NCBI GenBank assembly: GCA_963795085.1
Contig: CAWCFX010000006.1
Span: 320,001 to 384,000 of the forward strand
Reading direction: 5' to 3'
DNA: 64,000 bases
From: an uncultured Gemmatimonadales bacterium
GTDB lineage: Bacteria; Gemmatimonadota; Gemmatimonadetes; Gemmatimonadales; GWC2-71-9
Of the stretch, positions 23,619 to 46,477 are shown in pieces (position 1 is the first letter of the stretch; every line of letters begins with the position of its first letter). The notes beneath the pieces are model-generated. The model was not told the DNA's origin. It was given only the letters and a program-made list of their open reading frames with translations, and searched no databases. The position numbers were made by a program, and so were the translations under genes.

Positions 23619-24356
23619 TCATCGCAGGGATAGAAACACGTCGTACAGCGCGTGAGTCCAGGCGGCGATGCCGAACCCGCGCAGCAGGTAGAGCCCGCTG
23701 AACAGCACCCCCGCGATAGCCCGGAAGGTGAAGGAGTTGAGCTCCAGCGGGTCGCCGTAGGGGCCGATATAGTGAAACGCCGAGAAGACCAGCGCGCCCA
23801 CCACCGTCGCGACGATGCCCGCCACCACCGGTTTCCAGCCCAGCAGCAATCCCGCCCTGGCCAGCGCCGCTACCAGCAGGACCCGGAACAGGAGTTCCTC
23901 GTAGAGTCCCGCCCCCAGGGAGATCATCAACTGCGTCGGCAGGTTCATCCGCTCGATCGCGGTCTGGGACGCCACAGTATAGAGCGTGCCGTGCAGCAGC
24001 AGGGAGGTCAGCGACGCCGCCACAAAGCCGAAGAGCAGGGCGTAGATGCTGGACTCCGCCAGCATGCCGAGGAAGAGCCGGGGCGACAGTTCCCGGCCCG
24101 CGCGCTTCCAGTCCCGGTAGGCCAGCACCAGCAGCGTCCCTACCAGGAGAACTCCGAACGCCACGACACCCCGCCGGCCACCCATGGCGATGAACACGCT
24201 CTTCATCAGCACGTCGGCCCCGTTCCGAACGCCGGCGATGGCGTCGCCCGAGAGCGCGAAGGCGAGCACCTCGTAGAGCAGGAGCAGGGGGATGGCGAAG
24301 AGGAGACTGTACCGGGGGGCCCGGGTGAGGGACCAGTAACGGGGAGCGGGAGGCAT
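23619..24356 (-). CDS. CPBP (CAAX/Abi) intramembrane metalloprotease
   Basis: EELLFR, FSAFH, HALYD motifs. Confidence 0.9.
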   Translation of the reverse strand: MPPAPRYWSLTRAPRYSLLFAIPLLLLYEVLAFALSGDAIAGVRNGADVLMKSVFIAMGGRRGVVAFGVLLVGTLLVLAYRDWKRAGRELSPRLFLGMLAESSIYALLFGFVAASLTSLLLHGTLYTVASQTAIERMNLPTQLMISLGAGLYEELLFRVLLVAALARAGLLLGWKPVVAGIVATVVGALVFSAFHYIGPYGDPLELNSFTFRAIAGVLFSGLYLLRGFGIAAWTHALYDVFLSLR

Positions 24357-24435
24357 TGATGGAGGATAAGGGGGCAAGGGGGCACGCGGGCAAGGGGCCC
24401 GCAGCCCGTGGGTCTGGGGCTAGGCTTTTCGCCGA

Positions 24436-24464
24436 TTGATCTCCTCGCCCGAATCTGGTACTTT
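24436..24464 (+). promoter_or_regulatory. sigma70-type promoter with extended -10
   Basis: TTGATC-N17-TACTTT preceded by TG. Confidence 0.6.
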
Positions 24465-24520
24465 CTCTGCGAAGTCAGATTTCTGCCCTATGTTCCACCT
24501 TTTGCGAAGGAGGTGATCCA

Positions 24521-24583
24521 TTGTCTAGTGAGAGTTGCATCGCAGGCTCGAATCGGGCAAACGGTCGCCTGGTAACGCGCTAA
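24521..24583 (+). CDS. Candidate 20-aa peptide MSSESCIAGSNRANGRLVTR
   Basis: TTG start 7 nt after GGAGG within a 14-nt anti-SD complement. Confidence 0.3.
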   Translation: MSSESCIAGSNRANGRLVTR

Positions 24584-24634
24584 CCGATACGAAGCGCAAT
24601 CGAGAGCGACGCGTTTTCGAGCTCGATGCCAACA

Positions 24635-24672
24635 GAAGGCGCCATTCACCTCCGGGTGGGTGGCGCCTTTCA
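24635..24672 (+). terminator. Terminator-like hairpin
   Basis: GAAGGCGCCATTCACC-TCCG-GGTGGGTGGCGCCTTT, 16-bp stem with G-U pairs; short U tail. Confidence 0.6.
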
Positions 24673-24731
24673 CTTCCCCCCAGCCAACCGGCCCCCTTGC
24701 CCCCACTTCCCGTCCCGGCCACCATTCCCCC

Positions 24732-26027
24732 ATGCGCCCCTCGTTGCTCTACCGTGCCGGCCTGGCGCTCTCCCGGCCGCTGATCCCGCTGGCCGGGCTG
24801 CTGAGCGCCAAGATCGCACGGGGCCACCGGGCCCGGGCCGGGGCGCTTGGGCGGATGGAGACATGGGGCCGCACCCAGCGCGACCCGTCTCGCCCCCTGG
24901 TCTGGTTTCATGCCCCCTCGGTGGGCGAGGGACTGCAGGCGCGCAGCGTCCTGAGCCGGGTCCGGCTGCGGCATCCCGAGTGGCAGACGGTGTACACCCA
25001 TTTCAGCCCCTCGGCCGAGCGATTCGCCGAGGGCATCGGCGCGGACCTCGCCGATTACCTGCCCTACGACGGCATGTCCGCCGCCCGCCGCCTGCTGGAG
25101 TCGCTGCGGCCCACCGTCCTGGTGTTCACCAAGCTCGACCTGTGGCCGGAACTCGCCACCGCCGCCCGGAACCGCGGGGTGAAGGTGGTGCTCGTCGCGG
25201 GCACCGTGCGGCCGAAAAGCAGCCGGCTGCGCTGGCCGGCCCGGCGGCTCATCCGGCCCGGGTATCGAGCGCTCGATGCGGCCCTGGCCATCGCGGAGGC
25301 CGATGCCAAACGGCTGGTGACGCTGGGGGTGCCGTCCGGGGCGGTGAAAGTGGTGGGCGACCCCCGCTTCGACAGCGTCCTCGACGTGGTCCGGTCGGTC
25401 CCCCCCGATGACCCGATGAAACGGTTCGGGAGAGATGCCGTGACCCTGGTCGCCGGCTCGACCTGGCCGGGCGATGAGGCCGTCCTCCTCGATGCCTATG
25501 CCCGGCTCCGGGTGCACCGGCCGGATGCGCGCCTCATCCTGGTCCCTCACGAGCCGACCACCGCTCACCTGAGCGGGATCGACCGCATGGCCAACCGGGC
25601 CGGCCTGCCGGCACCGGTACGGTTGAGCTCGGCGGGCGGACCGGTCCCCTTCCTGGTGGTGGACCAGGTCGGATCCCTGGCCCGCCTCTATGGCGGCGGG
25701 GCGATGGCATACGTGGGCGGCGGGTTCCACGGCCAGGGGCTCCATTCGGTGCTGGAACCCTCGGCGTGGGGCATTCCCTCGGTGTTCGGCCCGCGATGGA
25801 CGGAAAGCCGGGATGCTTCGCTACTGCTGGAAGCCGGTGGGGCGGAAGCGCTGGCGGAACTGGGGAACTACGAAGCGGCGGAGGCCCTGCAGGCCCTCTG
25901 GGAGGACTGGATCATCAATGAGGTCCGGCGCAAGGCCCAGGGCCGGAAAGCGCTGGCGGTGGTGCAGAGCGGCGCCGGTGCCGCCGACCGCTCCGCCGAC
26001 CTGATCGAGGAGGTCATGCGCCACTAA
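24732..26027 (+). CDS. waaA: 3-deoxy-D-manno-octulosonic acid (Kdo) transferase
   Basis: WFHAPSVGE, GDPRFD, AGSTW, LVPHEP, HSVLEP. Confidence 0.92.
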   Translation: MRPSLLYRAGLALSRPLIPLAGLLSAKIARGHRARAGALGRMETWGRTQRDPSRPLVWFHAPSVGEGLQARSVLSRVRLRHPEWQTVYTHFSPSAERFAEGIGADLADYLPYDGMSAARRLLESLRPTVLVFTKLDLWPELATAARNRGVKVVLVAGTVRPKSSRLRWPARRLIRPGYRALDAALAIAEADAKRLVTLGVPSGAVKVVGDPRFDSVLDVVRSVPPDDPMKRFGRDAVTLVAGSTWPGDEAVLLDAYARLRVHRPDARLILVPHEPTTAHLSGIDRMANRAGLPAPVRLSSAGGPVPFLVVDQVGSLARLYGGGAMAYVGGGFHGQGLHSVLEPSAWGIPSVFGPRWTESRDASLLLEAGGAEALAELGNYEAAEALQALWEDWIINEVRRKAQGRKALAVVQSGAGAADRSADLIEEVMRH

Positions 26028-37575: not shown

Positions 37576-37648
37576 GGGGGCGTAGCTCAGTTGGGAGAGC
37601 GCGTGAATGGCATTCACGAGGTCAGGGGTTCGATCCCCCTCGCCTCCA
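37576..37648 (+). tRNA. tRNA-Ala(GGC)
   Basis: Cloverleaf, G3-U70 pair, anticodon GGC. Confidence 0.97.
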
Positions 37649-37710
37649 TTAGGTCGGACGGGCGGACCGGCACCAGTGCTCACGCTGGTCGCCGAAGGAT
37701 CAGGGCTCAG

Positions 37711-37739
37711 TTGCCAACGCTCGGGCGGGACGCTAGAAT
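37711..37739 (+). promoter_or_regulatory. Internal sigma70 promoter before tRNA-Gly
   Basis: TTGCCA-N17-TAGAAT. Confidence 0.65.
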
Positions 37740-37747
37740 CCCGGCAC

Positions 37748-37820
37748 GCGGGAATAGCTCAGTTGGTAGAGCACAACCTTGCCAAGGTTGGGGTCGCGGG
37801 TTCGAGTCCCGTTTCCCGCT
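37748..37820 (+). tRNA. tRNA-Gly(GCC)
   Basis: GCGGGAA acceptor stem, anticodon GCC, U73. Confidence 0.97.
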
Positions 37821-37925
37821 CTTCGTACCGGCGGACAGGCAGCCAGCCTCTCCAGCCGGGCTTGAAAAGTTCAGGGTGTAAAGTCCGTCGGTTCGCCAGT
37901 TCGGCCGTTCAGCTTTAAGAAACGT

Positions 37926-37999
37926 CGCGGGGTGGAGCAGTCTGGTAGCTCGCCGGGCTCATAACCCGGAGGTCGTGGGTTCAAATCCCACCCCCGCTA
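37926..37999 (+). tRNA. Initiator tRNA-fMet(CAT)
   Basis: Unpaired C1, GGG/CCC in anticodon stem, CAT. Confidence 0.96.
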
Positions 38000-38006
38000 T
38001 AAAAAG

Positions 38007-38081
38007 AAGTACTGAGTGAGGAGTACTGAGTACTGAGTCGATGCCCGACCCTCAGTACTCAGTACTTTTGTCTCAGTACTT
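38007..38081. repeat. AGTACTG heptamer inverted-repeat hairpin in tRNA spacer
   Basis: agtactgag x3 ... ctcagtact x3. Confidence 0.85.
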
Positions 38082-38091
38082 TGTACTTTTG

Positions 38092-38165
38092 GGGCGGTTA
38101 GCTCAGTTGGTTAGAGCGCCACGTTGACATCGTGGAGGTCACAAGTTCGAGCCTTGTACCGCCCA
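38092..38165 (+). tRNA. tRNA-Val(GAC)
   Basis: Cloverleaf, anticodon GAC. Confidence 0.96.
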
Positions 38166-38179
38166 TTCCGATTCACCAG

Positions 38180-38253
<74 letters not shown>

Positions 38254-38283
38254 TTGTAATCGAAGGGATTAAGGACCGGCCTG

Positions 38284-38331
38284 CCTCAATTCCTTCAATT
38301 CCTTCAATTCCCTCAATTCCCTCAATTCCCC
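38284..38331. repeat. 9-mer CC(T/C)TCAATT-type tandem x~5
   Basis: Same family as the 27153-27346 array. Confidence 0.85.
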
Positions 38332-38332
38332 A

Positions 38333-38406
38333 GGGTCCTTAGCTCAATTGGATAGAGCATCTGACTTCGGATCAGAAGGTTGGGGGTTCGAGTCCCTCAG
38401 GGCCCG
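38333..38406 (+). tRNA. tRNA-Arg(TCG)
   Basis: Cloverleaf, anticodon arm TCTGA-CT-TCG-GA-TCAGA. Confidence 0.94.
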
Positions 38407-41927: not shown

Positions 41928-42001
41928 CGGGGCGTAGCGCAGCCTGGTAGCGCGCTTGCTTCGGGAGCAAGAGGTCCCGGGTTCAAATCCCGGCGCCCCG
42001 A
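41928..42001 (+). tRNA. tRNA-Pro(CGG)
   Basis: CGGGGCG acceptor stem, anticodon CGG. Confidence 0.96.
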
Positions 42002-46403: not shown

Positions 46404-46477
46404 GGGTCCGTAGCTCAGCTGGATAGAGCGCTTGCCTCCGGAGCAAGAGGTCGCGCGTTCGAATCGCGCCGGGCCCA
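46404..46477 (+). tRNA. tRNA-Arg(CCG)
   Basis: Cloverleaf, anticodon CCG. Confidence 0.96.

Follow-up and report, generated by a model that had tools for sequence, protein, structure and literature searches.

Between a membrane protease gene and waaA, the window (the whole 64,000-nt stretch of Gemmatimonadales DNA that was analysed) probably contains an autonomous gene of about 200 nt (about 24471-24672, + strand) for a small mRNA of the rre kind, in which contact of the RNA with the ribosome and translation-coupled turnover, not the peptide, would be under selection. The element is the Gemmatimonadota counterpart of rreB and rreR, and such RNAs have so far been described only in Alphaproteobacteria. 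Its parts and the flanking genes are the following.

23619-24377, - strand: CPBP/Rce1-like membrane protease gene, upstream and divergent (Pfam PF02517, E = 2e-10)
24436-24441, + strand: -35-like hexamer TTGATC, read from the sequence, with a 17-nt spacer to the -10-like hexamer
24459-24464, + strand: -10-like hexamer TACTTT, read from the sequence, three of six bases agreeing with the consensus
24485-24488, + strand: leader motif GCCC, kept in alignments A1 and A2
24495-24503, + strand: leader CCACCUUUU, which partly mimics the 16S tail, folding onto the Shine-Dalgarno sequence (SD) at 24508-24515 in the minimum-energy fold
24507-24520, + strand: extended SD AAGGAGGUGAUCCA, perfectly complementary over 14 nt to the 16S 3' tail of the same genome
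24521-24583, + strand: mini-ORF with a UUG start (TTG 24521-24523), 20 codons (MSSESCIAGSNRANGRLVTR) and the stop UAA (TAA 24581-24583)
24534-24542, + strand: 5' strand of P1, GUUGCAUCG, partner 24624-24633
24546-24552, + strand: 5' strand of P2, GCUCGAA, partner 24616-24622
24555-24570, + strand: conserved box GGGCAAACGGUCGCCU, nearly invariant in 52 sequences, its 3' half forming P3
24564-24568 and 24606-24610, + strand: P3, GUCGC/GCGAC, its 3' strand just 5' of the 3' strand of P2
24577-24597, + strand: apical hairpin P4, GCGCU (24577-24581)/AGCGC (24593-24597), the ORF stop lying at its 5' edge
24616-24622, + strand: 3' strand of P2, UUCGAGC, partner 24546-24552
24624-24633, + strand: 3' strand of P1, CGAUGCCAAC, partner 24534-24542
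24635-24670, + strand: GC-rich terminal hairpin of 16 bp, presumed intrinsic terminator, 3' flank UUUCACUU
24732-26027, + strand: waaA (Kdo transferase), downstream (Pfam PF04413, E = 1e-39), its ATG at 24732 in frame with ORF 24660-26027

Judged from its sequence, the locus appears to be a gene for a free-standing folded small RNA, and the gene architecture fits. A first-pass annotation made from the letters had named the promoter TTGATC-N17-TACTTT, a perfect 14-nt complement of the 16S 3' end partly folded back on CACCT, the TTG-started 20-codon ORF, a set of nested stems (P1, GCTCGAA/TTCGAGC, GTCGC/GCGAC and GCGCT/AGCGC) and the 16-bp terminal hairpin. We found all of them at the positions listed above, the complement being exact when compared with the genome's own 16S, and the pairing with the leader appearing in the minimum-energy fold. 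As deduced from the -10-like hexamer, the transcript would start near 24471. A strict consensus scanner for promoters and terminators returned 0 sites within 24200-24900; the terminal hairpin was not called because its U tract is weak (the 3' flank, TTTCACTT, contains no clean U tract). The best -35/-10 pair ends 32-35 nt 5' of the SD in 21 of 52 relatives, and 44 nt 5' of it in the window. The leader motif GCCC could pair with GGGC of the conserved box, and since both are invariant, covariation is uninformative on this point.

The 14-mer at 24507-24520 reads AAGGAGGTGATCCA in DNA letters, and the 16S rRNA of the host genome ends in ...CUGGAUCACCUCCUUU. It occurs once in the window, as compared to 0.01 times expected from shuffles, and at three sites in the 3.9-Mb genome, i.e. 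in the 16S gene, at one coding-region site, and at 24507-24520, which is the single intergenic site. The complement amounts to 15 nt if a G-U pair is counted, and the U of the UUG codon does not extend the duplex. Measured against the 16S tail of the window genome, its length in the 52 relatives was 11-18 nt, mostly 13-14 nt, with 11-13 nt in 31 of them and at least 16 nt in only 4.

The element proved to be conserved in relatives. Matches were found with blastn in 16 of 61 close genomes, while a model of the 5' half (R1) matched 66 of the 151 genomes sampled from the phylum, with one copy per genome, and a pattern search over this set matched 64. The genomes matched by R1 include several complete ones of family f2 (G057, G138, G166). 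A full-length model (R2) aligned end to end with all 52 distinct sequences. About half of the sampled genomes gave no match, among them all 7 from one genus in the same family and all 18 from families f10-f12. This patchy presence indicates that it is dispensable or has diverged.

The folding z-score was -4.4 for the + strand and -2.4 for the - strand. In the R2 alignment, which was fitted to the model structure and hence favours that structure, 87.8% of the cells were paired, versus 70.3% in shuffles and 32-45% with slid partners. P2 was paired in 94.2% of the cells, with changes on both sides at 7 of 8 pairs, and the terminator hairpin in 96.8%, with changes on both sides at 15 of 15 pairs. 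In P1 (GTTGCATCG at 24534-24542 and CGATGCCAAC at 24624-24633 in DNA letters), the individual pairs were formed in 64-86% of the sequences, and all eight showed changes on both sides. Covariation among the 52 distinct sequences extends to P2, the terminator and most of P1. The partner strand of P3 was present in 52/52 sequences, and the apical region of P4 varied in length and sequence. When the closing stem was assessed in a cruder duplex test of self against non-self partners, the outcome was modestly positive, the sequence's own partner outscoring every unrelated one in 11 of 52 cases (mean z = -1.7); GC-rich targets of 135 nt yield strong chance duplexes, and the test was replaced by the model-based pair counts. 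The 3' strand of the rod adjoins the terminator stem without overlapping it.

The SD is predicted to be masked. In the minimum-energy fold the leader letters CACCTTTT (24496-24503) pair back with AAGGAGGTG, and this leader/SD helix was paired in 84.8% of the cells across relatives, with one-sided changes only. The whole box can alternatively pair with AGGUGAUC..UUGUCU, i.e. the 3' half of the SD and the first two codons, start codon included (helix S1). The fold energy was -84.0 kcal/mol at the minimum, -79.0 kcal/mol with S1 enforced and -74.8 kcal/mol with the SD and start codon unpaired, so that, for the window sequence, 9.2 kcal/mol are needed to open the latter. In 0 of the 52 minimum-energy folds were the SD and start codon unpaired. 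No compensatory changes were found for S1 in the 52 sequences, its two strands being nearly invariant, and the two sequences with a GUG start break one of its U-A pairs without compensation. In our model, S1 is therefore kept only as an energetically close alternative fold.

The closest published parallels are the small mRNAs rreB of Bradyrhizobiaceae and rreR of Rhodobacterales, described as carrying an extended SD by Hahn et al. (2016, RNA Biol 14:1353; PMC5711450). The paper reports that rreB has a 17-nt SD, that it co-sediments predominantly with 30S subunits, that it is translated weakly owing to the extended SD and the GUG start, and that its RNA is stabilised once the start codon is removed (PMC5711450). 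Its authors define an rre gene by a perfect 16S complement of at least 16 nt (16-17 nt) that extends into the start codon by one base (PMC5711450), a length that the window element does not attain, since its complement is 14 nt long and the first base of its start codon lies outside the duplex. The window element shares with rreB and rreR an SD extended over the free 16S tail and a single copy per genome; judging from its promoter-like motifs and presumed terminator, it may also be a small free-standing transcription unit with its own promoter and terminator, as they are. A non-AUG start 7 nt after GGAGG, followed by UCU as second codon, is common to them, as is a tiny ORF with a peptide conserved only within the clade; the short ORF of the rre definition, kept within the clade at optimal spacing, is thus present here with UUG instead of GUG. 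Part of the extended SD lies in a conserved hairpin in rreB and rreR and, by prediction, also in the window element, where the masking helices show one-sided changes or none. A GAUCGCC element pairing with a downstream GGCGRUC-like strand is found in the rreB folds and likewise in P3 of the window element.

Several differences should also be mentioned. Besides the phylum (Gemmatimonadota versus Alphaproteobacteria), they concern the start codon and length of the ORF (UUG and 20 codons versus GUG and 14 or 18 codons) and the masking of the SD, which would involve the upstream CCACC leader or the GGGCAA..GRUCGCC box in the window and involves an internal GUCACCUC in rreB. There is no detectable similarity between the peptide of the window ORF and those of rreB and rreR. 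Furthermore, 30S binding, weak translation and start-codon-dependent decay are results obtained with rreB only.

Against the Rfam model RF01867 (CC2171, a Caulobacter sRNA and the MSHC... type of rre gene), the whole element scored 23.5 bits (E = 0.005), compared to a gathering cut-off of 75 bits. The model aligned end to end with the element, from a 5' box AAGGAGGUGAUCCA-KUG-UCU through a closing long-range stem to the terminal hairpin, the posterior probability being low in the middle. True CC2171 members from our scan (L043, L044 and L060) scored 88-97 bits, and none of the tested Gemmatimonadota, rreB-type or rreR-type loci reached the cut-off. At the gathering threshold, Rfam gave no match in the whole window. 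In the converse direction, R1 reached rreB- and CC2171-type loci at marginal E values (4e-4 to 9e-3). A GAUCGCC-type box was present in 33 of 114 listed loci picked by SD and start alone, as compared to 7 and 3 in two control windows; because it was found in only 33 of these 114 loci, the shared box is not universal. The scores underlying homology with the alphaproteobacterial loci are marginal, and the resemblance could be a convergence on the same ribosomal target. A pattern-scan match in Gimesia (L066) was discarded, as it had no hairpins or terminator and seemed to be a chance hit within or next to a gene.

No strong Rfam hit was thus obtained, 6S RNA included: within 24300-24800, at E values up to 10, only CC2171 and a chance sul1 fragment came up. 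A riboswitch was also rejected, as Rfam gave no match at its gathering threshold in the window and the neighbouring genes are not conserved. The view of the first-pass annotation that the transcript is unannotated stands, but the element is not of an unknown kind, since this kind was published as rre in 2016. CC2171 itself has been seen by Northern blot in Methylorubrum and is described as being of unknown function (10.1101/2022.01.24.477521). A literature search in which subscription journals were thinly covered revealed no functional follow-up of rre or CC2171 and no report outside Alphaproteobacteria.

The working that we propose is as follows. In the free RNA, the SD would be masked by the leader CCACCUUUU or by the internal box GGGCAAACGGUCGCCU, which resembles the 16S tail, and the remainder would fold as a long rod (P1-P2-P3-P4) followed by the terminator hairpin. 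Pairing of AAGGAGGUGAUCCA with nearly the whole free 16S 3' tail would cause the RNA to dock on the 30S subunit far more tightly than an ordinary mRNA, and docking would bring the weak UUG codon, which follows GGAGG at a distance of 7 nt, into the P site. Reading of the 20-codon frame through P1, P2 and the box would unfold the rod, while the great length of the SD duplex and the lack of an AUG start would hold translation low. The 30S binding, the weak translation and the ribosome-dependent decay in this scheme are inferred or borrowed from rreB. The 30S-binding RNA and the gated small-peptide mRNA that had been proposed at first pass as separate readings would both fit published rreB, and the conserved start, frame and stop also appear to fit both.

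The ORF could be imagined to be an ordinary small-protein gene, the product of which would be the 20-residue peptide, the SD, the UUG and the folds merely tuning expression and mRNA stability. The start codon lies exactly 7 nt after GGAGG in 52/52 relatives, being UUG in 50, GUG in 2 and never AUG; the first in-frame stop falls at codon 17-22 in 52/52 (TGA in 23, TAA in 17, TAG in 12), and insertions and deletions come in threes. The distance from start to box is 35, 38 or 32 nt, six sequences deviating by +3 or -3 nt, which by our count reflects four or more independent events. Within the type, the peptide can be recognised by the pattern MSS...[R/W]A[S/N][D/G]R, and Hahn et al. regard RreB and RreR as small proteins that are conserved (PMC5711450). 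However, in the five codons of the box, which encode the best-conserved stretch of the peptide, the third positions are invariant (including those of GCA and GAU/GGU, in a genome of 67% G+C), whereas three second positions and one first position vary, the second-position changes altering the residue (S/N, D/G and R/L). This looks like a constraint on the letters as RNA, the reverse of selection at the protein level. Residues 3-11 vary freely, tracking the covarying helices, and the peptides of the 11-, 14- and 20-codon types of Gemmatimonadota, of rreB, of rreR and of CC2171 are mutually unrelated. Pfam gave no match for the peptide and three overlapping ORFs (the best, DUF4218, with E = 0.14, being far below the cut-off), and synthetic RreB and RreR were unstructured according to Hahn et al. 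(PMC5711450). We consider a small-protein gene unlikely. The opposite possibility, a purely non-coding RNA that would soak up or park 30S subunits or free 16S tails, with a frame that is incidental and never translated, agrees with the fact that the invariant parts are the 16S complement and the RNA boxes and not the peptide, that the SD is always masked in the predicted folds, and that the extended SD and GUG start suppress translation of rreB (PMC5711450). It is still less probable to us than a small-protein gene, as it leaves the exact spacing of the start codon, the narrow range of the in-frame stops and the changes in multiples of three unaccounted for; in frame +1, the stops lie anywhere between codon 0 and beyond codon 60. 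In addition, rreB is weakly translated and its stability depends on the start codon, its overexpression in B. japonicum caused no growth phenotype, and ribosomes are argued to far outnumber the rreB RNA (PMC5711450).

The first-pass annotation had also suggested an attenuator for waaA, i.e. a ribosome-dependent leader governing read-through into the downstream gene. Like trpL-type attenuators, the element is a structured RNA with a short ORF and a terminator hairpin, the fold of which translation would remodel; the waaA ATG follows its end at a distance of 61 nt on this strand, and since it sits between divergent genes, some gene is always downstream in the sub-lineage. The neighbourhoods do not bear this suggestion out. 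At the 44 loci scanned, waaA adjoined the element in 14; it was downstream and co-directional in only 3 of these, all in the window's genus, and upstream and divergent in 11, in which the element faces the CPBP gene. Relative to CPBP and waaA, the element is thus inverted in the window's genus as compared to other genera. At a congener locus (L002), the next gene downstream encodes a methyltransferase and is convergent, and the neighbours of distant members are unrelated (kinase, YceI, M50B, DUF1761, CYTH). The element is independent of its neighbouring genes. Unlike trpL-type attenuators, it also has no run of regulatory codons in its peptide, and no antiterminator alternative is evident, as the 3' strand of the rod does not overlap the terminator stem; its SD is far longer than attenuators such as trpL need. 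Hahn et al. likewise describe no conserved genomic context for alphaproteobacterial rre genes (PMC5711450). An attenuator therefore appears to us the least probable of all, and very improbable indeed.

A broader proposal, which we consider rather improbable, is that rre-type RNAs form one ancient cross-phylum class, in which the RNA would be the effector and would act as a three-strand switch at free 16S tails. Such a class would comprise Alphaproteobacteria, about half of the sampled genomes of one Gemmatimonadota class, and at least one Planctomycetaceae MAG. Binding of a free, mature tail would make three strands swap partners: the genuine SD, the GGGCAA..GRUCGCC box as an internal copy of the 16S tail, and the 3' strand of P3, which resembles an SD. 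In this way the RNA would signal or buffer the supply of idle 30S subunits, or check their 3' ends, and the translation that it allows would destroy it.

To return to the rre-type small mRNA that we favour, pairing with the entire free tail of 16S rRNA is known for only a few bacterial RNAs, and rre mRNAs belong to these. That a distant second phylum has this design too speaks for strong selection on the contact with the ribosome itself. The comparison separates fixed parts (the 16S complement, the non-AUG start, the second codon UCU, the GRUCGCC box and the closing rod) from free ones (the peptide, the apical region and the neighbouring genes), and it yields a concrete partner-exchange model that is open to mutagenesis. 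It also adds one unannotated gene to Gemmatimonadota genomes, and calls for caution, as such loci are easily misread as the leader of the next gene or as a riboswitch. If the three-strand switch were true, the element would represent a new kind of ribosome-directed riboregulator, not a small-protein gene.

The element is a candidate small-RNA gene on the + strand at about 24471-24672. Reading the sequence directly, we found in place the promoter, 14-mer, CACCT-side leader, TTG frame, stems and hairpin described in the first-pass annotation. The features of the element and its neighbors are as follows.

24436-41, + strand: -35-like TTGATC, read in the sequence
17-nt spacer, + strand: between TTGATC and TACTTT, read in the sequence
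24459-64, + strand: -10-like TACTTT, read in the sequence
24496-503, + strand: leader CACCTTTT, predicted to fold back at minimum energy on the Shine-Dalgarno sequence (SD) that complements the 16S tail
24507-20, + strand: extended SD AAGGAGGTGATCCA, a 14-mer, read in the sequence
24521-24583, + strand: UUG-started frame, translating to MSSESCIAGSNRANGRLVTR
24534-24633, + strand: four nested stems (predicted fold)
24635-70, + strand: terminal hairpin of 16 bp (predicted fold)
23619-24377, - strand: CPBP/Rce1-like gene, divergent, upstream of the element
24732-26027, + strand: waaA, downstream of the element

The perfect complementarity to the 16S 3' end claimed for the 14-mer is exact in this organism, because the 16S gene of the same genome, which we inspected, ends in ...CUGGAUCACCUCCUUU. 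The window contains a single copy of the 14-mer (0.01 expected) and the 3.9-Mb genome contains three, i.e. in the 16S gene, the element and a coding region (contig C1 near 647497, - strand, context ...GGCAAGGAGGTGATCCAGATG...), the last being probably a chance copy or an internal SD-like site. The predicted fold of the + strand beat shuffled sequences with z = -4.4 (-2.4 for the - strand). Both the 14-mer match and the fold exceed chance. A consensus promoter/terminator scanner called neither signal in the element region, and the U tract after the terminal hairpin is poor. Elsewhere in the window, eight tRNA genes lie on the + strand at 37576-38406, 41928-42001 and 46404-46477, six of them clustered in about 830 bp.

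The proposal of an unannotated transcript withstood the Infernal search of Rfam, which gave no strong match to a known family and zero matches at the gathering threshold. A permissive search gave one sub-threshold match to the element, to the Caulobacter sRNA CC2171 (RF01867; E = 0.005; 23.5 bits, below the 75 required by the family cut-off), with an alignment that holds in the terminal hairpin as well as in the AAGGAGGUGAUCCA-KUG-UCU box. A weak match to sul1 RNA inside waaA (24767-24797; 19 bits vs a cut-off of 36.2, E = 0.4) was taken as chance.

The design of the element resembles in kind that of the alphaproteobacterial small mRNAs rreB and rreR, as described by Hahn et al. 2016 (PMC5711450), but its complement is 14 nt, whereas the criterion published there is 16-17 nt. 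According to that source, rreB of Bradyrhizobiaceae is 165 nt long, is complementary to the 16S tail over 17 nt and has 14 codons starting with GUG, and rreR of Rhodobacterales has 18 codons; rreB is mostly found on 30S subunits and ribosomes, its GUG start and long SD make its translation weak, and replacement of the start codon stabilizes it. Its overexpression gave no growth phenotype there, and the authors termed its function elusive. In the literature, searched mostly outside subscription journals, we found no functional follow-up of rre or CC2171 and no report beyond Alphaproteobacteria.

A pattern scan in which each species was represented by a single genome gave at least 120 loci, including exactly the peptide types of that source, MS..KRCHLAGIAR, MSRVILERGVGTV.. 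and MSHCHQ.., of which the last alone reached the CC2171 cut-off (88-97 bits). Among the 80 loci listed with titles, the majority were from various orders of Alphaproteobacteria, while Gemmatimonadota accounted for at least 14 and planctomycetes for two. Of these two, L066 looks like a chance match and L029 (a Planctomycetaceae MAG; about 1501-1518, - strand of the locus) looks genuine from its sequence, an rre-like gene outside the two other groups: it combines AAGGAGGUGAUCCAG with a frame of 10 codons that starts at GUG, and also contains a long hairpin and an intrinsic terminator that is clean and carries a U tract. The sequence links between the element and the alphaproteobacterial rre genes are weak; that they share descent is likely but unproven.

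The element is conserved beyond its source genome, as blastn, a model of its 5' half (R1) and a pattern search all indicated. Blastn found it in 16 of 61 close genomes. R1, built from 18 sequences and run on 151 genomes sampled from the phylum, matched 66 of them, once per genome: 33/72, 8/31, 5/6 and 15/16 in families f1, f2, f6 and f7, respectively, and 0/18 in families f10-f12. The pattern search, run on these 151 genomes too, matched 64 and brought in six further plausible carriers, for about 72 carriers in all by our count; these tallies take in G098 and G132, two genomes flagged as unpublished, from which no sequence was taken. At least three ORF types occur in the phylum, with 20, 14 and 11 codons, the shorter two being detected by R1 at E = 8e-8 to 7e-4. 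One Gemmatimonadota genome (G104, contig C1) contains 11 copies of GGAGGTGATCCGGTGGCT. They look like the beginning of a gene that has a long Shine-Dalgarno sequence and is repeated and perhaps mobile, and they have no relation to the one rre locus in G104.

For the window's type we gathered 52 distinct sequences from all collected loci with a regular expression (SD, start codon three bases later, conserved box within 75 nt) that left out non-matching loci. The box is a nearly invariant 16-nt element, GGGCAA-R-CG-R-UCGCC-N. RNAalifold predicted stems P1 and P2 and the terminator from nine close sequences, with compensatory changes at 15 of the 48 predicted pairs. A full-length model (R2) aligned end to end in 52/52 sequences and also gave six partial opposite-strand matches to the hairpin. 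In the R2 alignment, which is fitted to the model and therefore biased toward its structure, 87.8% of cells were paired (70.3% in shuffles, 32-45% with partners slid). Covariation was seen there as double changes in P2 (7/8 pairs; 94% paired) and the terminator (15/15 pairs; 97% paired); P1 was 64-86% paired, and the leader hairpin on the SD was 85% paired with one-sided changes only.

The 3' half of the box forms P3 with the segment directly 5' of the P2 3' strand in 52/52 sequences (-7 to -18 kcal/mol). In an alternative helix, S1, the whole box could pair with AGGUGAUC..UUGUCU, i.e. the SD 3' half, start codon and codon 2. Predicted energies in the window are -84.0 kcal/mol for the minimum (leader hairpin plus rod), -79.0 for the S1 state and -74.8 with SD and start free. 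S1 is the minimum-energy state in 11/52 sequences, and SD and start are free in 0/52 minimum-energy folds. The two common variable positions of the box are neutral to S1 (an internal loop; R opposite U). Two observations speak against S1: a G/U variant breaks one of its pairs in three sequences, and a U-A pair is lost, uncompensated, in both sequences that start with GUG. The 11-codon type has the same SD-box complementarity a few bases from the start, which is consistent with S1. The SD core of rreB is hidden by an internal GUCACCUC, whereas in the predicted folds of the element this is done by the leader or S1; GGAUCGCC of rreB pairs downstream, as P3 does here. Leader GCCC (24485-24488) may also pair with box GGGC (24555-24558), the box 5' half being bulged from the rod, as a candidate pseudoknot; both are invariant.

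The start codon is UUG in 50/52 sequences and GUG in two, at constant spacing, and all 52 reach their first stop in frame 0 at codon 17-22 (TGA 23, TAA 17, TAG 12); stops in frame +1 are scattered, and in 42/52 frame +2 ends at codon 1. Start codon and box are 35 nt apart in 46 sequences, 38 nt in five and 32 nt in one, and every indel in this interval (at least four independent ones by our own count) is a multiple of three. In the five box codons, the third positions are all fixed; variation is confined to three second positions and a single first position. Peptide residues 3-11 track covarying helices, the peptides of separate ORF types bear no relation to one another, and a Pfam search of the peptide matched no family. 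The comparison of peptide with structure conservation called for in the first-pass annotation came out divided: frame, start and stop are kept, but the peptide-coding letters look RNA-constrained. We conclude that fixed-length translation is selected, whereas the peptide sequence itself probably is not. That the peptide is the product, as the kept frame would allow, is unlikely in view of the codon and peptide patterns. Also quite unlikely is a 30S decoy that is never translated; the retained frame, start and stop speak for translation.

An attenuator of the next gene, proposed for waaA in the first-pass annotation, is very improbable. The flanking ORFs of 44 loci were searched against Pfam. 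waaA adjoins the element in 14 of them and is downstream and co-directional in just three (the window, L003 and L004), all from the source genus; in the other 11 it is upstream and divergent, and the element then faces CPBP wherever the downstream family was identified. Relative to both neighbors the element, with promoter and hairpin, is therefore inverted in the source genus. It resembles a self-contained module that has flipped locally (23619-26027 compared with L005, L006, L008, L016, L023, L138, L140, L144 and L156). Another locus of the source genus, L002, has a convergent cyclopropane-synthase-like gene downstream, and the neighbors in other lineages are unrelated (Ser/Thr kinase with YceI or DUF481, M50B peptidase, DUF1761, CYTH). 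In 21/52 sequences a promoter-like -35/-10 pair stops 32-35 nt before the SD; eight had none by our criteria. The element behaves as a self-contained gene, not as a waaA leader. The waaA/CPBP neighborhood is common to the 20-codon and 11-codon types (the latter MSTESRVACG., L026 and L093; also L148, L138, L144 and others), and for this reason the two seem to have diverged from a single ancestral locus.

We consider it probable that the element is an rre-type small mRNA that docks on the 30S subunit by forming a 14-nt duplex with the tail of the 16S rRNA; here 30S binding, weak translation and decay are assumed by analogy with rreB. The docking site would be masked in the free RNA, as the modeled folds suggest, docking would permit only weak initiation at the UUG, and reading of the 20-codon frame would remodel the RNA, probably turning it over.
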